A stretch of DNA of 64,000 bases from Escherichia coli. GTDB taxonomy: Bacteria; Pseudomonadota; Gammaproteobacteria; Enterobacterales; Enterobacteriaceae. Where the stretch lies: the NCBI RefSeq assembly GCF_003018255.1, contig NZ_CP027440.1. One strand, written 5' to 3'. Below the pieces are notes generated by a model. That model searched no databases, was not told the origin of the DNA, and worked only from the letters and a program-made list of their open reading frames with translations. Below are positions 51,143 through 64,000 of the stretch, piece after piece. Every line of letters begins with the position of its first letter. Positions within the stretch are counted from its first letter, which is position 1. The position numbers were made by a program, and so were the translations under genes.

Positions 51143-52159
51143 TCATTCAACCAGTGTTTGTAAACTGCTTTCGCGGTTCACTTCTGTCTGACGCTGCACA
51201 GCTGCCACCAGCGCCAGTTCGATAATTTCCTGCACGCTACAACCACGAGAGAGATCGTGCATCGGCGCGGCAAGTCCTTGTATCAATGGCCCGACGGCAC
51301 GATATCCGCCAAGTCGTTGTGCGATTTTGTAGCCAATATTTCCGGCTTCCAGCGACGGAAAAACCATCACATTAGCTTTGCCCTGTAACGGGCTGGCAGG
51401 CGCTTTTTGCGCCGCCACTTCCGGCACGAAGGCGGCGTCAAACTGCAACTCGCCATCGACAACCAGCTTTGGTGCGCGCTCACGGACGATTTCTGTCGCC
51501 TGCTGGACGTTGGCAACGCAGGGGTGACGGGCACTACCGTTGCTGGAAAACGACAACATCGCCACGCGCGGTTCTTCTCCGGTGATGGCGCGCCAGGTTT
51601 CGGCGCTGGCAAGCGCGATATCCGCCAGTTGCGCCGCCGTCGGCTGTGGCACTACGCTGCAATCGGCAAAGCCCAATGCGGGGCCACTGTACTGTGGCAG
51701 CATCAGGAAAATGGAGGAGAGCGTTTTACAGCCTGGCTGTAAGCCGATAATGCGTAATCCGGCACGCAGCACATTCGCCGTGGAAGAGAGATTGCCCGCG
51801 ATACAGACATCCGCTGTCCCGGCGCTGACCATTGCGGCAGCGAACATCAGCGGATCGGTGAGTTTATCCAGCGCATCCGGCGGCGTTTTTTCGCCCGCAC
51901 GGGCCAGCCAGCGGAGAGCAAATTCTTCCCGCATTGCGAGGTTGCCATGCGGATCAATCACCTGTAGCCCGTCCATCGCCACGCCGTGACTGAGCGCAAA
52001 CTGACGAAGTTCAAACGGATTGGCGACCAGAATGGGCGTTGCCAGACCTTGTTGATGTAAATATTGCGCCGCTTTCAGCACACGTTGATCTAACGCATCC
52101 GGAAAAACTACTCTGGCGGGCGCTCGCAACGCCAGTTTACGACAACGTTCAATAATCAT
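51143..52159 (-). CDS. eutD: Phosphotransacetylase EutD (338 aa)
   Basis: ORF-track; [31 protein letters not shown]... Confidence 0.92.
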
Positions 52160-52959
52160 TGCGTTTCCCCCAGTCGTTGTTGGATCTGCTTCACCGTTAG
52201 CGACTGCTTCGTTACGCTCAGGATCATCATCACGTAAACCGTGCTGGAAAGGCGGTTCAGCGCCTGCAAGATGTCCGGGCGTAATACTTCAAAGCTGCGG
52301 GTGATAAACACCTGCGCCGCTACAGTTTCGGTTTCCCGCACTTTGGTGCGTAGCAGATTGAGCAACGCCGCATCACGCCCGTGGCTGGCTTCCGGCACCA
52401 GATGATCGTGGTCGAGATAGCGCAGCGGCTGGTGAGAAAGCCGATGCAGATCTTCGTCAGAAAGCCCGACAATCGCTTGTTCGCCCAGCGGTTCCCCCAG
52501 CGCATCGGCGCGCATAATGTTGCCAAGACGCGAACGGATATCCGCCAGCCACGGCTGCCACGGTTCCGCCAGTTCAATTTGCAGCCACACTGCCAGCGCA
52601 ATGGTGCTGTCGAGAACAGCGCGAAAAGCCAGGCGCGGATCGCTTTTGGCAACCATTTTTTCCGCCGACAGGTGAGTCAGCGTATCCGGCTTTTTTGCCA
52701 CCGGCTGGCGGCACAGTTCGCAGCACGCCTGCGGATGTTCATCGCTACTGGTTAGCCCGTGAACGGGCTGCGGCTGCTGCTGTTCATCGTCAACAAACAG
52801 GCGGCCCTGCTCGTCAATAAACTTGATGCGCAGATGGCGGCTTTCCAGTAACTCCCGGGCAGAGGGCGTCAGGCGACTGTCCGCAGGGAGATGGATCTCT
52901 GCGCCTTCGCTGAGCGTATGATTCGCTCTTAGCCATGCTTCGGTGATGAAATCTTTCAT
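52156..52959 (-). CDS. eutT: Corrinoid adenosyltransferase EutT (267 aa)
   Basis: ORF-track; 4-nt overlap with eutD. Confidence 0.9.
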
Positions 52960-53657
52960 AAGGATTGCCAGTTAGCCGGCCAGGCGACATACAGGAATTT
53001 CACGCTGGATGTCGTACCAAATTCGATGCTGGAGCCTTTCGGGATAAACATCACATCGCCCGCTTTGGCGATCATAGTTTCGCCTTCGTGGCGAACATGC
53101 AGCTCCCCTTCCAGCACCATGTCGATTTCGTCGTAGTTCAGGGTCCACGGAAAGAAGGCGTTCTCCCACTGCATGAAACCAGCGGCCATACTGCTGCCGT
53201 CGTCTCCGGTCACGAGATCAGTCAAGCCTACGCAGTGCGGTTCCGCGCCATCGAAACGACCAAACTTGACGCTGCTGCCATCAATAACTTTGATGCCGCC
53301 TTTGCCGGTCACCGATTTAAAGCTCGGCTGCAGTGCACCCTGCTCCAGCGACTGTTTTTCCTTCATCACTTTTTCCATCAGCTGCGCGACCAGGCTTTCG
53401 GTAAACTGACCTTCCGGCAGTTGGGCGATAATGGTTTCACGGATGCGCTGGCTTTCGGTTTTATCGGCTGATGCGCTGGCGGGAACAGACGCCGTTACCG
53501 GGATCGATTCATCACATTCGGTGATGGTAAAACCCAACAGATCAGCCACTTCACGAGCTTCCGGGGTAATAATGCTGGCGCGCAGAACCACGGACATTGC
53601 CAGTTCGCCGCGCGCGTGTGCTTCACGAATATCATTCGCTGTGATGAGTTTTTTCAC
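52956..53657 (-). CDS. eutQ: Cupin-fold ethanolamine-utilisation protein EutQ (233 aa)
   Basis: ORF-track; 4-nt overlap with eutT. Confidence 0.9.
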   Translation of the reverse strand: MKKLITANDIREAHARGELAMSVVLRASIITPEAREVADLLGFTITECDESIPVTASVPASASADKTESQRIRETIIAQLPEGQFTESLVAQLMEKVMKEKQSLEQGALQPSFKSVTGKGGIKVIDGSSVKFGRFDGAEPHCVGLTDLVTGDDGSSMAAGFMQWENAFFPWTLNYDEIDMVLEGELHVRHEGETMIAKAGDVMFIPKGSSIEFGTTSSVKFLYVAWPANWQSL

Positions 53658-54111
53658 CTGCTTCCTCCTGTTTGGTGAGAGATGCCAGATAATCCACCAG
53701 TTGCTGCACGCTTTGCGGGTCGTGGCTGTTTAGCTCGAAAATCGGCTCTTCGAAGCCCGTCTCAAGCAATAACTTTCGCGTTGCGGCGACGTCAGCATCT
53801 GGCATGTCCGTTTTACTGATGACGGCGATTTGCCGTTTGCTGACGCCAATATCCAGCAACCCGGCAGGCAACCGACTTTCCGGGTCATTCGCGCCGTGGA
53901 CATAGATCAGCATGTCCACATCCTGTAGCGTGGTAATTAATGCGTGATACCAGCGGGGATGGCTAAAATATTCACCCGGCGTATCAATATCGCCATTATC
54001 ATTAAATTCCACGGCCTGCGTTTTTCTGGCGAGGGTATAATTCCCCTGCAACGCATTAAATAACGTTGTTTTTCCTGCCCCGACGGTACCCACAAACGCA
54101 ATTCGTTTCAT
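53632..54111 (-). CDS. eutP: P-loop NTPase EutP (159 aa)
   Basis: ORF-track; Walker A GTVGAGKTT; overlaps the eutQ start by 26 nt. Confidence 0.9.
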   Translation of the reverse strand: MKRIAFVGTVGAGKTTLFNALQGNYTLARKTQAVEFNDNGDIDTPGEYFSHPRWYHALITTLQDVDMLIYVHGANDPESRLPAGLLDIGVSKRQIAVISKTDMPDADVAATRKLLLETGFEEPIFELNSHDPQSVQQLVDYLASLTKQEEAGEKTHHSE

Positions 54112-54123
54112 GAATGCCTCATA

Positions 54124-54459
54124 TTAACTTTTGGTCATTTCACAAAGCGTATAATTTAATAAGCGTCCTAAACCACTGACGGTTTGTGATAACGCTTCTT
54201 CTACTGCGCCCACCGAACCATAAATCACCAGCGCGCCGCTAAAACGGTCGAGAAAACCGATATGCACATCGGCGGCTTTCAAAGCTAAATCACCGGCGAT
54301 CATCGCCGTTTCTCCGGGAGTTAGCGTCATAATGCCAATTGCGCCCGCATCCGGAACGCCGATTTTCTTCGCCAGTTCCTCGCCGGGATGCGCGATGAGA
54401 TGCGCCAGCGTGACCTGTTTGCCGGGCACAAATTCCTGAATGATGCGTTCTTTATCCAT
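54124..54459 (-). CDS. eutS: BMC shell protein EutS (111 aa), first gene of the eut operon
   Basis: ORF-track frame 54124..54531; start placed at ATG 54459 ([32 protein letters not shown]...). Confidence 0.85.
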
Positions 54460-54707
54460 GAGTCGCCGCCTGTGAAAAACTTTCGTGTATCGTGACAATT
54501 TTTCGTCAGAGTAAATAACAAAATTCGGCAAGCGCGTTTAAAAGGTGAGGTAGATCACTAAGAATGGAGAGATATTTACTGTTATGAATAAACTTTCATA
54601 TGCGACGCATGAATATAAATAAAATAATATCGAGATATTTTATATACTGATTTTTTTATTATTCGTAAACTCAGTAATAAGCTTTACTAATATATTGCAG
54701 CTAAACT

Positions 54708-54733
54708 GCTTACCCTGAATATTCAGGGTAAGC
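54708..54733. other. Perfect 26-bp palindrome GCTTACCCTGAATATTCAGGGTAAGC between the maeB stop and the eut promoter region
   Basis: Exact self-complementarity verified base by base; on the minus strand it follows a T9 run that begins right after the maeB stop codon. Confidence 0.6.
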
Positions 54734-54751
54734 GTGAGAGTTAAAAAAAAA

Positions 54752-57031
54752 TTACAGCGGTTGGGTTTGCGCTTCAACCACGGCCAGCGCCACCATATTG
54801 ACGATACGACGTACCGATGCGATCGGCGTTAACACGTGAACCGGTTTCGCCACACCCATCAGCACCGGACCGACAGTCACGCCTTCCGAGCTGGAAACGC
54901 GCAGTAAGTTGTAACTAATGCGGGCAGCTTCCATGTTCGGCATCACCAGAATATTAGCGGAACCTTTCAAAGGGCTGTCCGGCATACGGTCATTCCGAAT
55001 CGCTTCCACCAGCGCTGCATCGCCGTGCATTTCACCATCAATCATCAGTTCTGGTGCACGTTCCCTGACCAGTTCCAGCGCCTGACGCATTTTGCTCGAC
55101 GACGGGCAGTCAGAAGAACCAAAGTTGGAGTGCGACAACAGAGCCACACGCGGCTCAATACCAAAACGACGAACAGTTTCTGCCGCCATCAAGGTGATCT
55201 CCGCCAGCTCTTCTGCATCAGGCTCATCATTGACGTAGGTATCGGCAATAAAGGTGTTACCACTCGGCAACAGCAGCGCGTTCATTGCACCTGCGGTGTG
55301 AACGCCATCGCGATAACCAAAGACATTTTTCACCACGCTAAAGTGTTCATGATAATCGCCCACCGTACCGCAAATCATTGCATCGGCTTCGCCACGCTGA
55401 ACCATGATCGCGCCGATCACTGTCGGGTTACTGATCAGCGCACGCTGCGCCTGCTCCTGAGTGACACCGCGACGCTTCATGATCTGGAAGTATTCGGTCC
55501 AGTACTCTTTAAAGCGCGGATCGGATTCGTTATTGACGATCTCAAAATCAACGCCCGCCTTGATCTGCAAGCCCAGTTTCTGAATGCGCATTTCGATCAC
55601 GTTCGGACGACCAATAAGGATCGGTTTCGCCAGTCCCAGCGTTACCAGTTCCTGAGTGGCATGCAGAACGCGCGCCTCTTCCCCTTCCGGCAGAACTACG
55701 CGCTTCGGCGCTTTGCGAGCCTGGGAGAAAATCGGCTTCATAAACAGGTTAGTTTTGTAAACGAACTCCGTCAGCTTGTCGATGTAGACGTCGAAATCAG
55801 CAATCGGACGCGTCGCCACGCCCGACTCCATCGCCGCTTTCGCCACCGCAGGAGCGATCTTAACGATCAAGCGCGGATCAAACGGTTTTGGAATGATGTA
55901 TTCCGGACCAAAGCTCAGATCCTGATCGCCATACGCTGAAGCCACCACTTCACTCTGTTCCGCATGGGCCAGTTCTGCAATCGCGCGTACCGCCGCCAGT
56001 TTCATCTCTTCGTTGATGGCGGTTGCGCCAACGTCCAGCGCGCCACGGAAGATAAACGGGAAGCAAAGGACGTTGTTCACCTGGTTCGGGTAGTCGGAAC
56101 GGCCGGTACAGATGATGGCATCCGGACGCACTTCTTTCGCCAGCGGCGGCAGAATTTCCGGTTCCGGGTTCGCCAGCGCCAGGATCATTGGCGCACGGGC
56201 CATTTTCTTCACCATTTCCTGGGTCAGCACTTTCGGGCCGGAACAGCCGAGGAAAATATCCGCGCCTTCAATCACATCATCGAGGGTACGTTTACCGTCA
56301 TCCACCACCGCGTATGCGGCTTTGGTTTCCGCCATGTTTGGCTCACGGCCCCGATAGATAACGCCTTTTGAATCGCAAACCACGATGTTATGTTTTTGCA
56401 GACCCAGCGCTACCAGCAGGTTCATACAGGCGATTGCTGCGGCACCCGCGCCAGAAACCACCATCCGCACGTCGGAGATGTTTTTCTCCACCACGCGCAA
56501 ACCGTTGAGGATGGCGGCAGTGCTGATAATTGCCGTGCCGTGCTGATCGTCGTGGAATACCGGAATATTCATCCGCTCGCGCAGTTTCTGTTCAATATAG
56601 AAACATTCTGGCGCTTTAATGTCTTCGAGGTTGATGCCGCCAAAGGTCGGTTCGAGCGCAGCGACGACTTCAATAAATTTGTCCGGGTCGAGTTCATCAA
56701 CTTCTATGTCAAATACATCAATCCCGGCGAATTTCTTAAACAGAACGCCCTTGCCTTCCATCACCGGTTTGCCTGCCAGCGCGCCAATGTTGCCTAACCC
56801 CAGCACCGCCGTACCGTTAGAGATCACCGCTACCAGGTTACCGCGCGCGGTATATTTGTAGGCTTTTAACGGGTCTTTTTCGATTTCAAGACAAGGTGCG
56901 GCAACGCCTGGTGAGTAGGCCAGCGCCAGATCGCGCTGCGTTGCCAGAGGCTTGGTTGGAGAAACCTGGATTTTCCCTGGAACTGGAAATTCATGGAAAT
57001 CAAGTGCACTTTGTTTTAACTGGTCATCCAT
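54752..57031 (-). CDS. maeB: NADP-dependent malic enzyme MaeB (759 aa; malic enzyme plus PTA-like domain)
   Basis: ORF-track; [35 protein letters not shown]... Confidence 0.97.
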
Positions 57032-57319
57032 TTGGTTGTTCCTTTCACGTAACGTTCACAAATAAAGTGTGTGGGCAACAGCCCCTGCCCACAACGTGGC
57101 GCACATTATTACCTTGCCGGAGTCTACAGACTTTGAGCAAGTCCAAACTCTCACCATTAATATAATGTTTTGGTAATAATCCTATAACACTGATGTTACC
57201 TGCTTAATCCAGCAATACCATGCCTGTCTGCTATGCTTTTTTGATGCGTTTAGCGAAATTTCTCAGAAGTGTGAATTAACGCACTCATCTAACACTTTAC
57301 TTTTCAAGGAGTATTTCCT

Positions 57320-58270
57320 ATGAACGAGTTAGACGGCATCAAACAGTTCACCACTGTCGTGGCAGACAGCGGCGATATTGAGTCCATTCGCCATTATCAT
57401 CCCCAGGATGCCACCACCAATCCTTCGCTGTTACTCAAGGCTGCCGGATTATCACAATATGAGCATTTAATAGACGATGCTATCGCCTGGGGTAAAAAAA
57501 ATGGCAAGACCCAGGAGCAACAGGTGGTCGCAGCGTGTGACAAACTGGCGGTCAATTTCGGTGCTGAAATTCTCAAAATCGTACCCGGTCGCGTGTCAAC
57601 AGAAGTTGATGCACGCCTCTCTTTTGATAAAGAAAAGAGTATTGAGAAGGCGCGCCATCTGGTGGACTTGTATCAGCAACAAGGCGTTGAGAAATCACGC
57701 ATTCTGATCAAGCTGGCTTCGACCTGGGAAGGAATTCGCGCGGCAGAAGAGCTGGAAAAAGAAGGTATTAACTGCAACCTGACGCTGCTGTTTTCTTTTG
57801 CACAGGCGCGGGCCTGTGCAGAAGCAGGCGTTTTTCTGATTTCGCCGTTTGTCGGGCGTATTTATGACTGGTATCAGGCACGCAAGCCGATGGACCCGTA
57901 TGTGGTGGAAGAAGATCCAGGCGTTAAATCAGTACGCAATATCTACGACTACTATAAGCAACACCACTATGAAACCATTGTGATGGGCGCGAGCTTCCGT
58001 CGCACCGAACAAATCCTCGCCTTAACCGGCTGCGACCGACTGACTATCGCACCGAATTTGCTGAAGGAGCTACAGGAAAAAGTTTCGCCAGTGGTACGTA
58101 AATTAATCCCACCTTCTCAGACGTTCCCACGCCCAGCTCCCATGAGCGAAGCGGAATTCCGTTGGGAGCACAATCAGGATGCGATGGCGGTAGAAAAACT
58201 GTCTGAAGGCATTCGTCTGTTCGCCGTTGATCAACGCAAACTGGAAGATCTTCTTGCCGCCAAACTATAA
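57320..58270 (+). CDS. talA: Transaldolase A (316 aa)
   Basis: ORF-track; [42 protein letters not shown]... Confidence 0.95.
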
Positions 58271-58289
58271 ACCAGCCACGGAGTGTTAT

Positions 58290-60293
58290 ATGTCCCGAAA
58301 AGACCTTGCCAATGCGATTCGCGCACTCAGTATGGATGCGGTACAAAAAGCCAATTCTGGTCATCCCGGCGCGCCGATGGGCATGGCTGATATTGCCGAA
58401 GTGCTGTGGAACGATTTTCTTAAACATAATCCTACCGACCCAACCTGGTATGATCGCGACCGCTTTATTCTTTCCAACGGTCACGCGTCGATGCTGCTCT
58501 ACAGTTTGCTGCATCTGACCGGTTACGACCTGCCACTGGAAGAACTGAAGAACTTCCGTCAGTTGCATTCGAAAACCCCTGGTCACCCGGAAATCGGCTA
58601 TACGCCAGGTGTTGAAACCACCACCGGTCCTCTTGGACAAGGTTTGGCGAACGCCGTCGGGCTGGCGATAGCAGAGCGTACGCTGGCGGCGCAGTTTAAT
58701 CAGCCGGATCATGAAATTGTCGATCACTTCACCTATGTGTTTATGGGCGACGGCTGCCTGATGGAAGGTATCTCTCACGAAGTCTGTTCGCTGGCGGGCA
58801 CGCTGGGGCTGGGCAAGCTGATTGGTTTTTACGATCACAACGGTATTTCCATCGACGGTGAAACCGAAGGCTGGTTTACCGACGATACGGCAAAACGTTT
58901 TGAAGCCTATCACTGGCATGTGATCCACGAGATCGACGGTCACGATCCGCAGGCGGTGAAGGAAGCGATCCTTGAAGCGCAAAGCGTGAAAGATAAGCCG
59001 TCGCTGATTATCTGCCGTACGGTGATTGGCTTTGGATCGCCGAATAAAGCAGGTAAAGAAGAGGCGCACGGCGCACCGCTGGGTGAAGAAGAAGTGGCAT
59101 TGGCACGGCAAAAACTGGGCTGGCACCATCCGCCATTTGAGATCCCTAAAGAGATTTATCACGCCTGGGATGCCCGCGAAAAAGGCGAAAAAGCGCAGCA
59201 GAGCTGGAATGAGAAGTATGCAGCCTACAAAAAGGCCCATCCGCAACTGGCAGAAGAGTTTACCCGTCGGATGAGCGGTGGTTTACCGAAGGACTGGGAG
59301 AAAACGACTCAGAAATATATCAATGAATTACAGGCAAATCCGGCGAAAATCGCTACCCGTAAGGCTTCGCAAAATACGCTTAACGCTTACGGGCCAATGC
59401 TTCCTGAATTGCTCGGCGGTTCGGCGGATCTGGCTCCCAGCAACCTCACCATCTGGAAAGGTTCTGTGTCGCTGAAGGAGGATCCGGCGGGCAACTACAT
59501 TCACTACGGGGTGCGGGAATTTGGCATGACCGCTATCGCCAATGGCATTGCGCACCACGGCGGCTTCGTGCCGTATACCGCGACGTTCCTGATGTTTGTT
59601 GAATACGCTCGTAACGCCGCGCGGATGGCGGCACTGATGAAAGCGCGGCAGATTATGGTTTATACCCACGACTCAATTGGCTTAGGGGAAGATGGTCCGA
59701 CCCACCAGGCCGTTGAGCAACTGGCCAGTCTGCGCTTAACGCCAAATTTCAGCACCTGGCGACCGTGCGATCAGGTGGAAGCGGCGGTTGGCTGGAAGCT
59801 GGCGGTTGAGCGCCACAACGGACCGACGGCACTGATCCTCTCCAGGCAGAATCTGGCCCAGGTGGAACGTACGCCGGATCAGGTTAAAGAGATTGCTCGT
59901 GGCGGTTATGTACTGAAAGACAGCGGCGGTAAGCCAGATATTATTTTGATTGCCACCGGTTCAGAGATGGAAATCACCCTGCAAGCGGCAGAGAAATTAG
60001 CAGGAGAAGGTCGCAATGTACGCGTAGTTTCGCTGCCCTCGACCGATATTTTCGACGCCCAGGATGAGGAATATCGGGAGTCGGTGTTGCCTTCTAACGT
60101 TGCGGCTCGCGTGGCGGTGGAAGCAGGCATCGCCGATTACTGGTACAAATATGTTGGTCTGAAAGGGGCAATTGTCGGGATGACCGGCTATGGGGAATCT
60201 GCTCCGGCAGATAAGCTGTTCCCGTTCTTTGGCTTTACCGCCGAGAATATTGTGGCAAAAGCGCATAAGGTGCTGGGAGTGAAAGGTGCCTGA
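58290..60293 (+). CDS. tktB: Transketolase 2 TktB (667 aa)
   Basis: ORF-track frame 58227..60293; start placed at ATG 58290 ([34 protein letters not shown]...), 19 nt after the talA stop. Confidence 0.95.
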
Positions 60294-60395
60294 TGGTGAT
60301 CGCCGGATGCTATATGTTCCCCTCACCCTAACCCTCTCCCCAGAGGGGCGAGGGGACGGTCCGTGCGCTTTTTAGGGGCGCATCTGGGATTTTGT

Positions 60396-61439
60396 TTAAC
60401 GGGTGATCCACAACGTGGGCCAGGCGTCTGGCCCATGCCAGTTATCGCAGGTGGGTTCTGCGGCGTAACGCACCAGGCGAAAAAGCTGACCGTCAAAGCG
60501 CCAGCGCGCCTGAATGCCACAATCGCTTAATCCGCGCCCTTTCGCTAAGGTCACCAGTTCACGCGATTTTTCATCGAATGTTGCGTTCATCAGTTCCAGT
60601 TCATTCGTCTCCTGACCGCTGTTGAACGGCAAACGTAACCGAACCGGGCGCGAGGCCAGTGGCTTTTTACGCGACACAATCCATGCCAAATCAATGGTGT
60701 TATAGGCCCCTGCCTCACAGCTAATCATCATCAGCGCTTTATCATCGGTCAGCGCAGTGACATTCACCTCTCGACGCAATGGATCAAGCGAGCAGCGCAG
60801 ACCATTCATCCGCCAGTTTCCATAATCCAGCAAATCGTTGCGTTCTTCGAGTGAGAGTGGCGTCGGCGTTGGGTTAACCACCGCGACCTCTTTCAGCGCA
60901 GGCGCGGGCGGTACGCTGAGCGGCGGTTCATCCCCTTTCTTTATCCACGCGGTTTCACTGCCAACGCGCTTTTGCTGAGCATCTATAAACAACAACGCCG
61001 CTTTTAAGCCACTCAGAGAAATAGTCTGATTGCCGTCGCGTAAGGTGATCGCCCTCCCTTCCTGAATCATCTGCAAAAACGCGGTGATGGTTGCCGTATC
61101 ATCGGTTACTAATAACCATGGTGAAATCCGCCACTTGTCACCACTTAACGCCAACGGCTCACCATCTAACAGCAGCCGTGGCGCTATCTCCCCTTCAGAC
61201 GCATCCGGCGACTTCAACCCGCCGCGCTCAATACGTAAAACGGCATCGGTATGCGCCCCGGCGCTGCGGCTCAGGGTCATCACCAGTCCGTTATGATCGC
61301 CCGTATTACGCGCCACGCAGAAGTTTTGGTTATTACAGGTGACCTGCCAGTCGGAAAACGCCCGTTGCGCTGGTGCCGCCCACACCAAAGACGTCGGCAA
61401 CAAAGCGAAAAAAAAGAGAAGGAAAATGCGATAGCGCAT
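60396..61439 (-). CDS. ypfG: DUF1176-family secreted protein YpfG (347 aa)
   Basis: ORF-track; signal peptide MRYRIFLLFFFALLPTSLVWA. Confidence 0.85.
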   Translation of the reverse strand: MRYRIFLLFFFALLPTSLVWAAPAQRAFSDWQVTCNNQNFCVARNTGDHNGLVMTLSRSAGAHTDAVLRIERGGLKSPDASEGEIAPRLLLDGEPLALSGDKWRISPWLLVTDDTATITAFLQMIQEGRAITLRDGNQTISLSGLKAALLFIDAQQKRVGSETAWIKKGDEPPLSVPPAPALKEVAVVNPTPTPLSLEERNDLLDYGNWRMNGLRCSLDPLRREVNVTALTDDKALMMISCEAGAYNTIDLAWIVSRKKPLASRPVRLRLPFNSGQETNELELMNATFDEKSRELVTLAKGRGLSDCGIQARWRFDGQLFRLVRYAAEPTCDNWHGPDAWPTLWITR

Positions 61440-61564
61440 GGACGGTACGACCCCAGAAGTTCAAACAAACAGCACAAGTCGTATCTTCGTTGCGCAGGTA
61501 GCGCGGCTCAATCGGATTTATCGGATTGAGCCAATAATAAACAACGAAATATTATTGTTATTTT

Positions 61565-62140
61565 TCAGTCCATTAAATGTGACATTTGCAAATAGTTAAG
61601 CAATAACACCGTCTTACCGTCACGTATCTCGCCAGTTTTGATCATCTCCAGCGCCTTGTTGAACGGCAGCTCGAGCACTTCAATATCTTCATCTTCGACA
61701 CCACCGCCGGCGTTAGCGCGCTGGCTGTCACTGTATTCGGCGATAAAGAAGTGGATTAGCTCAGTCACACCGCCTGGCGACATATACAGTTCAAATAATT
61801 TGCGCACTTCGCCAACTTCATAACCCGTCTCTTCAATCGCTTCTTTACGAATACACACTTCCGGTTCGTCGTTATCCAGCAGCCCGGCGCAGGTTTCAAT
61901 CAGTTGCCCGCTTTCATTGCCATTAACCCAGGTAGCGACGCGGAACTGGCGAATCAGAACCACGGTCTTTTTCTTCGCGTTGTACAGGAGGATCGTTGCA
62001 CCATTACCGCGATCGTAAACTTCACGTTTATGGCGGATAACTTCGCCATCTTTGCGCGTGAGATCGTAAGTAATGTTGTGCAGGGTGAAATAGTTATCGG
62101 AGAGAATTTTGTCTTTAATGAGGGTGATTTGTTGCGTCAT
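61565..62140 (-). CDS. nudK: GDP-mannose pyrophosphatase NudK (191 aa), Nudix hydrolase
   Basis: ORF-track frame 61565..62167; start placed at ATG 62140 ([27 protein letters not shown]...); Nudix box [22 protein letters not shown]. Confidence 0.9.
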
Positions 62141-62207
62141 ACCGACTCCACAGCGCGAAATGAACAATTATCTTACGCTGTGAAGCCGGGTTTGTCTGCG
62201 CAGGCTA

Positions 62208-64000
62208 TCAGTGAGATTTGACTGATTTTACCCCCAGCCAGTCAATAATCCCCTGTGCCGCATGACGTCCTTCTGCCATTGCGGTAACCACCAGATCCGC
62301 ACCACGCACGGCGTCACCACCGGCGAAGATTTTCGGATTGGTGGTCTGGTAACGGTACTGGCTTTCCACATCCGCGATGATGCGGCCCCATTTGTCTACC
62401 GTTACACCGTGCGACTCCAGCCACGGCATCCCGTGCGGATTGAAGCCAAACGCCATAATCACCGCATCGGCTGGCATGACAAATTCACTGCCTTCCACCG
62501 GCACTGGACGCCGACGCCCCTGGGCATCCGGCTCGCCAAGACGCGTGCGCAGGAAACGAATCCCGCAGACGTGACCTTGTTCATTCAGTTCAAGCGCCAC
62601 CGGCTGGACGTTAAATTCGAAGTTGGCCCCCTCTTCACGGGCGTTCTTCACCTCTTTCTTCGAGCCTGGCATGTTAGCTTCATCACGACGATAAGCGCAG
62701 GTGACGTTACTCGCGCCGTGGCGCAGCGCAGTACGCACACAGTCCATCGCGGTGTCGCCGCCGCCCAGTACCACGACGTTAAGTCCGGCAGTATTGATAA
62801 ACGGCTCTTCCGGTAGCTCTTCGAGTCCCATCACCTGTTTAGTATTGGCGATGAGGAACGGCAGCGCGTCATAAACGCCCGGCGCATCTTCATTGGGTAA
62901 ACCCGCTTTCATGGAGCGGTAAGTGCCTACGCCAACGAAGACCGCGTCGTATTGTTCCAAAAGCGAATTCAAAGAGACATCTTTACCCACTTCACAATTG
63001 AGTTCGAAGTGAATCCCCATCGCGCTGAAGATTTCCCGACGGCGTGCCAGCAGGGATTTATCCAGTTTGAAAGAAGGAATGCCGAAAGTGAGCAAGCCAC
63101 CGATTTCTGGATGGCGATCGTACACCGTCACCTCTACGCCATTGCGGGTCAAAACATCCGCACAGGCCAGCCCTGCCGGACCCGCACCGATAATCGCCAC
63201 CCGCTTGTCCACTTTGGTGACATGGCTTAAGTCAGGACGCCAACCTTTCGCCAACGCCTGATCTGAAATGTAGCGTTCAATGTTACCGATAGTTACTGCG
63301 CCGTGCTCATCGCGAATAGTACAGGCACCTTCACACAAACGGTCTTGCGGGCAAACGCGTCCGGTAATTTCCGGCAGGGTGTTGGTCTGGTGAGAAAGCT
63401 CGACGGCGGCGTCGATGTTTCCGGCTTTCACCAGTTCAATCCACTGCGGTATATGGTTATGCAGCGGGCAGGTCCATTCACAAACGCTGTGCTCGCCGCA
63501 CTTAAGGCAGCGCGAGGCTTCCCGTTGTACCTGATCGGCACGGAATGGCAGATAAATTTCATCAAAACCGGTTTTGCGCGCTTCAATCGCCAGTTTATCT
63601 GGCTCGCCACGCGCGGGCGTTGCCTGCATTTGCTCGACTTTACTCATTACCGGCATTTCTTGCGCCGCGGTACTGGCATGCCACGGTTGATGTTCCTGAC
63701 GTGCGGTACGCAAGCGGCGGGATTTCGCCATGCCTGAGAGTGCGGCGTCAGTGACCAGTTGCAGCGCGTCCGCTGGGCAATTCTCGACACAAGCAGGACC
63801 GTTTTCGCGCCCTGCACAAAGGTCGCATTTATGCGCCGTGGCTTTTACTTTTCCTGCCGCGACGGGGGTCAGGACGATTTGCATCGTACCAAATGGACAG
63901 GCCACCACGCAGGATTTACAGCCAATACACTTTTGCTGATTGACCTGAATGCTGTCATCAACGTGGCTGATTGCGCCATTAGGGCAGCTACGGGCGCAGG
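62208..64000 (-). CDS. aegA: Putative Fe-S/FAD oxidoreductase AegA, C-terminal part (gene continues upstream beyond the window end)
   Basis: ORF-track 62208..63908 begins at an internal GTG; the same frame stays open to position 64000 (...CARSCPNGAISHVDDSIQVNQQKCIGCKSCVVACPFGTMQ...), i.e. ferredoxin-like Cys clusters followed by a GltD-like FAD/NAD(P) domain. Confidence 0.85.
   Translation of the reverse strand, partial: CARSCPNGAISHVDDSIQVNQQKCIGCKSCVVACPFGTMQIVLTPVAAGKVKATAHKCDLCAGRENGPACVENCPADALQLVTDAALSGMAKSRRLRTARQEHQPWHASTAAQEMPVMSKVEQMQATPARGEPDKLAIEARKTGFDEIYLPFRADQVQREASRCLKCGEHSVCEWTCPLHNHIPQWIELVKAGNIDAAVELSHQTNTLPEITGRVCPQDRLCEGACTIRDEHGAVTIGNIERYISDQALAKGWRPDLSHVTKVDKRVAIIGAGPAGLACADVLTRNGVEVTVYDRHPEIGGLLTFGIPSFKLDKSLLARRREIFSAMGIHFELNCEVGKDVSLNSLLEQYDAVFVGVGTYRSMKAGLPNEDAPGVYDALPFLIANTKQVMGLEELPEEPFINTAGLNVVVLGGGDTAMDCVRTALRHGASNVTCAYRRDEANMPGSKKEVKNAREEGANFEFNVQPVALELNEQGHVCGIRFLRTRLGEPDAQGRRRPVPVEGSEFVMPADAVIMAFGFNPHGMPWLESHGVTVDKWGRIIADVESQYRYQTTNPKIFAGGDAVRGADLVVTAMAEGRHAAQGIIDWLGVKSVKSH

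Follow-up and report, generated by a model that had tools for sequence, protein, structure and literature searches.

What lies between the convergent genes tktB and ypfG, and does it serve either of them? In the stretch of 64 kb of E. coli DNA analysed here, hereafter called the window, positions 60294-60395 coincide exactly with the 102-nt spacer separating the two stop codons. A first-pass annotation had described in this spacer a GC-rich imperfect palindrome, viewed either as a degenerate bidirectional terminator or as a different class of intergenic repeat. The second proposal holds. The element is one copy of the already known, dispersed BoxC repeat, the family denominated also PIT, TMECO or HPG1, many copies of which are found in nearly every E. 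coli genome. The two genes are annotated as tktB and ypfG both in a near-identical E. coli record and in K-12 MG1655. The features of the region are listed in Table 1.

Layout and family assignment of the element

Both sequences originally singled out are in place, CCCCTCACCCTAACCCTCTCCCCAGAGGGGCGAGGGGAC at 60319-60357 and GTGCGCTTTTTAGGGGCGCAT at 60363-60383. The C-tracts described as facing G-tracts correspond, in a repeat search, to the 11-nt inverted repeat TCCCCTCACCC / GGGCGAGGGGA, which is 91% complementary. Only the first half of the second sequence, GTGCGCTTTTT, belongs to the repeat, the other half, AGGGGCGCAT, being locus-specific. Similarly, the inverted repeat GTGCGC/GCGCAT exists, but is weak and peculiar to this copy, since other family members lack it. 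Three features had passed unnoticed: the organization in three blocks (two C-blocks and one G-block), a G-quadruplex motif on the minus strand, and the REP-like arms bracketing the element. Read on the minus strand, the element is CCCTCGCCCC-TCT-GGGGAGAGGG-TTA-GGGTGAGGGG. The last tract, complementary to C-block 1, is the third-strand G-block of the proposed triplex, and on the same strand GGGGAGAGGGTTAGGGTGAGGGG makes up a canonical G4 motif of four tracts, located beside a complementary C-block. A perfect CCCTCTCCC...GGGAGAGGG palindrome is not found in the window; the element is a three-block motif instead.

Table 1. Coordinates of the tktB-ypfG spacer, of its flanking genes and of the BoxC copy that it hosts
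Feature	Position	Strand	Basis or remark
tktB (transketolase 2) reading frame	58227..60293	+	ORF listing; annotated gene 2004 nt, same stop codon
tktB stop codon	60291-60293	+	TGA
REP-like left arm GCCGGATGC	60302..60310	+	common to REP alleles of the locus; pairs with 60380-60387
BoxC repeat copy	60313..60377	+ (C-rich strand on +)	profile match; conserved ~65 nt of the family
C-block 1 CCCCTCACCC	60319..60328	+	read from sequence; invariant in 7 copies
TMECO consensus match and HPG1 21-mer GGGAGAGGGTTAGGGTGAGGG	60320..60354	-	type A, one mismatched base pair
TAA loop	60329-60331	+	between C-block 1 and C-block 2
C-block 2 CCCTCTCCCC	60332..60341	+	sequence and alignment of copies
AGA loop	60342-60344	+	between C-block 2 and G-block
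G-block GGGGCGAGGGG	60345..60355	+	can pair with either C-block (inverted repeat, predicted folds)
Conserved 3' extension ACGGTCCGTGCGCTTTTT	60356..60373	+	family consensus GACnGTCCGnGCnCTTTTT; copy alignment, profile alignment
Locus-specific right flank GCATCTGG	60380..60387	+	complementary to 60303-60310, one mismatch
T-run TTTTGTTTA	60390..60398	+	directly after outer stem; overlaps ypfG stop codon
ypfG stop codon	60396-60398		reads TTA on + strand
ypfG (DUF1176 protein)	60396..61439	-	convergent with tktB

The repeat, known since the 1990s under the name BoxC, was found anew in 2000 and called PIT, for potential intrastrand triplex (PMC4666352). BoxC, PIT and TMECO have been equated by Holder et al. 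in 2015 (PMC4666352), and BoxC is listed among the known E. coli families as a 56-bp sequence present in 32 copies (PMC2267715). The TMECO consensus, CCCTCNCCC-N3-6-GGGNGAGGG-N3-GGGNGAGGG, has a single, exact match in the window, at 60354..60320 on the minus strand. Both the 35-nt consensus and a 24-mer taken from the element have one match each in the window, versus none in 100 shuffles. TMECOs are distinguished by the second loop, TTA in type A and CCG in type B, single-mismatch type A units being the commonest (PMC4666352). The second loop of the tktB-ypfG copy is TTA, which assigns it to type A, and one G·A mismatch is present when CCCTCGCCCC is paired with GGGGAGAGGG. The 21-mer HPG1, GGGAGAGGGTTAGGGTGAGGG, known as a G-quadruplex motif with a C-rich block about 3 nt upstream (Kaplan et al. 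2016, PMC5100583), is found inside the TMECO match, preceded by CCCTCGCCCC-TCT.

An nhmmer profile was derived from six copies retrieved at other loci (fimH-gntP, hybG-hybF, yihS-yihR, yjbD-rluF, ygfF-gcvP and purK-ybcF). It matches the spacer at 60313-60377 (69.6 bits, E 7.9e-21), with no further significant match in the 64-kb window. The alignment spans positions 7-71 of the 107 of the profile, about 65 nt, and homology extends past the triplex core. Because the alignment ends at position 71, the window copy lacks the usual right tail (..TTTGTCATCAGTCTGAG), a feature of the other aligned type A copies. In the alignment of seven copies the sequence TTCCCCTCACCCTAACCCTCTCCCCnnAGGGGCGAGGGGACnGTCCGnGCnCTTTTT is near-invariant, variation being found in the loop and at a few n positions. 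A scan of 59800-60900 against Rfam at a permissive threshold gave as best hit an unrelated eukaryotic frameshift element, which scored 22.3 bits versus a gathering threshold of 40.

The copy shares with the family known as BoxC, PIT (Hoyne and Maher), TMECO and HPG1/HPG2 the exact consensus and the 21-mer, the single mismatch of type A, the intergenic location, the 3' extension GACnGTCCGnGCnCTTTTT and a presence varying from strain to strain. It differs, besides the missing tail, in being single, with no type B partner, and in being located at a site which holds a REP in K-12, and is therefore outside the 23 TMECO copies of MG1655, all intergenic (PMC4666352). Neither tktB nor ypfG nor talA is mentioned in the supplementary tables of Holder et al. 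A chance GC-rich palindrome lacking relatives is ruled out by the absence of matches in the shuffles and by the number of homologous places in E. coli genomes, which runs into the tens of thousands. The spacer should accordingly be annotated as a BoxC (PIT/TMECO/HPG1) repeat, rather than as a terminator or an unknown element.

Copies and alternative alleles in E. coli

Additional genomic copies, on which the repeat proposal had been made to depend, are abundant. Sequences related to the 81-nt element were identified by blastn in 5425 of 5426 complete E. coli genomes, at a median of 17 places per genome (range 1-29). Almost all of the 81,927 places are chromosomal (81,882), only 45 being carried by plasmids. 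K-12 derivatives feature 19 places, versus the 23 TMECOs published for MG1655. The seven copies examined are all intergenic: four are located between convergent genes and none between divergent genes, and those at hybF-hybG and yihS-yihR are located between co-directional genes, in both orientations. At ygfF-gcvP a type B copy, with a CCG loop, and a type A copy are inverted with respect to each other and set 29 nt apart, a paired arrangement known from the literature.

The full element is found at the tktB-ypfG locus in 832 of 5426 genomes (15%). K-12 has a REP sequence at the same place, and most other strains have one or more REPs. REP alleles may be single, double or expanded, a single 501-nt query matching allele spans of 467 to 541 nt, and in the REP allele of strain ANT the unit GCCGGATGCTGATT is tandemly repeated. 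The edges, ..GATCGCCGGATGCTG on the left and ATTTTGTTTAAC on the right, are the same in all alleles, which feature either REP or BoxC sequences in between. BoxC and REP are alternative alleles at tktB-ypfG, and the spacer is a swap site. Since BoxC is hosted there by about 15% of the complete genomes, the two alleles provide a natural isogenic-like pair, suited to monitor effects on the 3' ends of tktB and ypfG mRNAs or on local mutation rates.

REPs, also called PU and organized in BIMEs, resemble the BoxC copy in being short GC-rich imperfect palindromes found in spacers at the 3' end of genes. They moreover take the place of BoxC in the other alleles of tktB-ypfG, and the BoxC copy is bordered by REP-like arms, GCCGGATGC ... 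GCATCTGG. The two types of repeats differ in that their sequences are dissimilar, REPs being made of one hairpin and linked to the RayT transposase, BoxC of three blocks with no known enzyme. The element had been said not to match the REP consensus found elsewhere in the window, and this is confirmed: GCCKGATGCGRCGY..RCGYCTTATCMGGCCTAC, with 3 mismatches allowed, has matches only at three sites within 46739-46975, and the REP trace at tktB-ypfG is just the 9-nt left-arm fragment GCCGGATGC at 60302-60310. The insertion of BoxC into the loop of a pre-existing REP was considered and discarded: for all their resemblance to REP arms, the flanks GCCGGATGC...GCATCTGG do not correspond in position to the arms of REP alleles. 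The three REPs at 46739-46975, all on the minus strand, follow each other at intervals of exactly 100 bp; two are identical, the third fits the consensus perfectly, and together they look like a tandem BIME-like array.

Diverged versions of the BoxC allele have been found in two strains. In CUVET19-1396 the 65-nt element carries 4 substitutions, at least 2 of which fall in paired blocks, versus a divergence of 1.5-3.1% in the flanking genes. CUVET16-465 has an unaltered element, next to a tktB 3' end differing from that of the window at 9 of about 186 aligned sites. The substitution counts in both strains are too small to infer selection, and show that decayed versions exist; decayed copies have been described at other loci by Holder et al. 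(PMC4666352).

The region 52000-64000 of the window is near-identical, over 12 kb, to the corresponding DNA of E. coli JNE23-011 and JNE112863. Only 5 of the 5426 complete genomes match it at 99% or more, the next best match being 98.4%, and the window thus derives from a sparsely sampled lineage.

Folding of the spacer and expression of the neighbouring genes

The 43-nt core is predicted to form a hairpin on either strand. Its RNA fold has a calculated energy of -21.1 kcal/mol (z -2.4) for the plus strand and of -26.2 kcal/mol (z -3.2) for the minus strand, the corresponding DNA folds of -9.7 and -12.4 kcal/mol. The predicted fold of 60300-60400 is closed by UCGCCGGAUGC/GCAUCUGGGA, directly followed by UUUUGUUU. 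The arms GCCGGATGC and GCATCTGG are predicted to pair, closing the whole spacer into one structure, the z-score of which is only -1.4 to -1.8. The right flank GCATCTGG is absent from the BoxC family consensus, and the T-run TTTTGTTTA is kept in both BoxC and REP alleles.

The element had been described as something other than a clean hairpin followed by a T-run, and correctly so. A consensus scan for terminators and promoters found no sites on either strand in the interval 60100-60600. Intrinsic terminators were defined by a GC-rich stem, a loop of 3-8 nt and a T-run within 0-2 nt; here the T5 run of the family begins only 13 nt past the BoxC hairpin, and the opposite strand is devoid of T-runs. 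The run TTTTGTTT follows only the long-range closing stem, which encloses about 70 nt. The A-run looked for as a mark of bidirectional terminators is found upstream of neither the BoxC hairpin nor the outer stem. Earlier functional tests of PIT elements revealed neither promoter nor terminator activity, nor effects on RNA polymerase (PMC4666352). The evidence is against the element itself being a terminator, and the degenerate bidirectional terminator originally considered finds no support.

It is very probable that the BoxC copy has no dedicated role in the expression of tktB and ypfG, and is a passively carried, possibly selfish, structure-prone repeat, marking a spacer liable to rearrangement. 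This account, the most likely one, draws on the family-level literature and on the comparison of alleles, K-12, in which the assays were done, having a REP at this place. With two C-blocks and one G-block, either single strand could fold into a stable hairpin, and the G-rich strand could also form an intrastrand triplex or a G-quadruplex, as it does in vitro. When the DNA becomes transiently single-stranded in replication or transcription, such folds may stall polymerases and promote slippage. Copies and flanks would in this way be gained, lost, mutated or swapped between strains, and stalling and slippage would explain the variation observed from strain to strain. Residing mostly in 3' or convergent spacers, copies would do little harm. 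Against a merely passive repeat stand the extreme conservation of the core between loci and the abundance of the 35-nt motif in distant phyla and in viral contigs, for which neutrality alone is a strained explanation. Both may be hints of a selective or mobilising agent. The unchanged element of CUVET16-465, found beside a diverged tktB 3' end, is likewise at odds with passive carriage.

A direct contribution to tktB expression is unlikely. The element, or the composite structure enclosing it, would form the 3' end of tktB mRNA, acting as a terminator or, like REP hairpins, against 3' exonucleases. The BoxC copy starts 20 nt past the tktB stop codon, its predicted RNA hairpin is stable (-21 kcal/mol), the T5 run is conserved in the family, the predicted outer stem UCGCCGGAUGC/GCAUCUGGGA is followed at once by UUUUGUUU, and 4 of 7 copies are located between convergent genes. 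These features are countered by the scan, which detects no terminator-like site, by the distance of 13 nt between hairpin and T-run, by the modest z-score of the whole spacer (only -1.4 to -1.8), and by the published assays of the family, which revealed no terminator activity (PMC4666352). Moreover, some copies separate co-directional gene pairs, in both orientations, and the closing stem and the T-run are not parts of BoxC, being features of the locus common to, or paralleled in, REP alleles. It is similarly doubtful that the locus-specific outer stem and UUUUGUUU contribute to the tktB 3' end, in which case the repeat would simply be nested inside the modelled structure.

Gain, loss and spread of the repeat

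Occupied and empty alleles have been compared at two loci. At hybF-hybG, in the hydrogenase-2 gene cluster, the occupied allele is longer by 121 bp, with the 5-bp direct repeat TTATT at the borders of the extra DNA. This segment, between hybF (hypA) and hybG, is found in only 20 of 5426 genomes, and no donor locus for its 41-nt non-repeat left part was detected elsewhere among the 5426 E. coli genomes. At yjbD-rluF the extra DNA measures 132 bp and is bounded by an imperfect repeat of about 10 bp (AGGCGCTAAT / AGGCGTTAAT); strains with the empty allele have no spacer there, and the two convergent genes abut. In both occupied alleles the extra DNA includes 41-46 nt of sequence foreign to the family, and terminal inverted repeats are absent from the family in the alignment of seven copies. 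The differences at hybF-hybG and yjbD-rluF, the two loci compared, do not carry a transposase signature, given bounding repeats of unequal length, the presence of non-family DNA and the lack of terminal inverted repeats. They fit slippage or illegitimate recombination between short direct repeats located on either side of structure-prone DNA, or the import of whole spacers by recombination. Replication slippage has been proposed earlier, nearly all copies from 56 strains being assigned to 62 fixed loci, and the flanks of TMECOs are more variable than control spacers (PMC4666352). In a ChIP-seq study, the G4-prone sequences listed by Kaplan et al. were over-represented in regions of replication errors associated with MutL (PMC11754648); the list is wider than HPG1/HPG2, which makes the link indirect.

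The motif is found also outside E. coli. A consensus scan of one genome per species identified at least 120 stretches. Mitsuaria chitosanitabida (Burkholderiales) is dominant among them, and a Methylomirabilota MAG and Contendobacter are also represented; among the matches listed, copies often form inverted pairs (head-to-head) 80-150 nt apart. In Mitsuaria and in MAGs from other phyla the motif, 33-36 nt long and organized in three blocks, is very abundant, and the copies of Mitsuaria feature the extra flanks ..GAGCC..nnGCC and TCTTCGGG. At least 120 stretches of viral contigs (IMG/VR) host the motif as well. The second loop is TTA in 27 of the 146 viral copies listed, one of which is exactly the 35-nt sequence of the window. 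Many TTA-loop copies among the matches listed have RTC, and several CACGG-N2-3-GTC, directly 5' of the G-strand motif, where E. coli has CACGGACCGTC. The distribution agrees with the survey of Holder et al., in which over 260 genomes proved to host the motif (PMC4666352). It is a broader question why the exact motif is kept in dozens of copies and across phyla.

BoxC might be a non-autonomous mobile element, similar to MITEs or REPINs, copied by an enzyme encoded elsewhere, the tktB-ypfG copy being an insertion into a former REP site. Like REPINs and MITEs, BoxC units are dispersed, non-coding and hairpin-forming, sometimes occur as inverted pairs, and vary in number between strains. Copies are nearly identical in spite of their dispersion, and a strain may have as few as 1 or as many as 29; short direct repeats mark the borders of presence/absence polymorphisms; inverted pairs are found in E. 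coli, and very often in Mitsuaria. The occurrence in viral contigs and the REP-like inverted arms bracketing the copy described here can be read in the same sense. Mobility of this type is nonetheless improbable. In the loci and copies examined BoxC differs from REPINs and MITEs by the lack of terminal inverted repeats, of a uniform target duplication (bounding repeats of 5 versus about 10 bp) and of an associated transposase. The 41-46 nt of non-family DNA, which in the hyb case is found nowhere else in 5426 genomes, the plasmid-borne places, only 45 of 81,927 in E. coli, and the assignment of nearly all copies to 62 fixed loci common to strains (PMC4666352) argue in the same direction. A tblastn search with the E. 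coli RayT found no match, hence no RayT-like gene, in 1.07 Mb of DNA around motif copies from other phyla.

The recurrence of the same specific bases in E. coli, in other phyla and in viral contigs suggests a further reading, itself quite unlikely: more than a structure-prone sequence, the motif would be the recognition module of a widely distributed putative enzyme or binding protein, in a system like that of REP and RAYT with a different hairpin, of which BoxC copies would be the footprints.

Even less credit can be given to the element as a DNA or RNA switch, which would alternate between duplex, hairpin, triplex and G-quadruplex and modulate local transcription or replication, as proposed by Kaplan et al. 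and partly by Holder et al. Transitions to triplex and between G4 and hairpin have been published for the consensus in vitro (PMC4666352, PMC5100583); in particular, the G-rich strand of consensus oligonucleotides forms an intrastrand triplex in vitro by CD and NMR (PMC4666352). The window copy has the same three blocks as these oligonucleotides, with the minus-strand G4 motif GGGGAGAGGGTTAGGGTGAGGGG beside a complementary C-block, and the motif is conserved across phyla. The copy shares with H-DNA, intramolecular triplexes and G-quadruplexes acting as replication obstacles the mirror and complementary purine/pyrimidine blocks and the four-G-tract motif. Polymerase blockage in vitro and an association with local variability have been reported (PMC4666352). 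The family differs from such obstacles in its behaviour in vivo, where DMS footprinting did not support a stable triplex. A regulatory switch is contrasted also by the lack of association of the repeats with gene function or with the distance to reading frames (PMC4666352), and by the location of the copy, downstream of both neighbours and replaced by REPs in 85% of strains.

A distinct, minor repeat marks the adjacent gene. The ypfG 3' end includes, at 60416-60435 of the window, the perfect 8-bp inverted repeat TGGGCCAG/CTGGCCCA, at which strain CUVET16-465 carries an 18-bp in-frame tandem duplication, extending ypfG from 1044 to 1062 nt.
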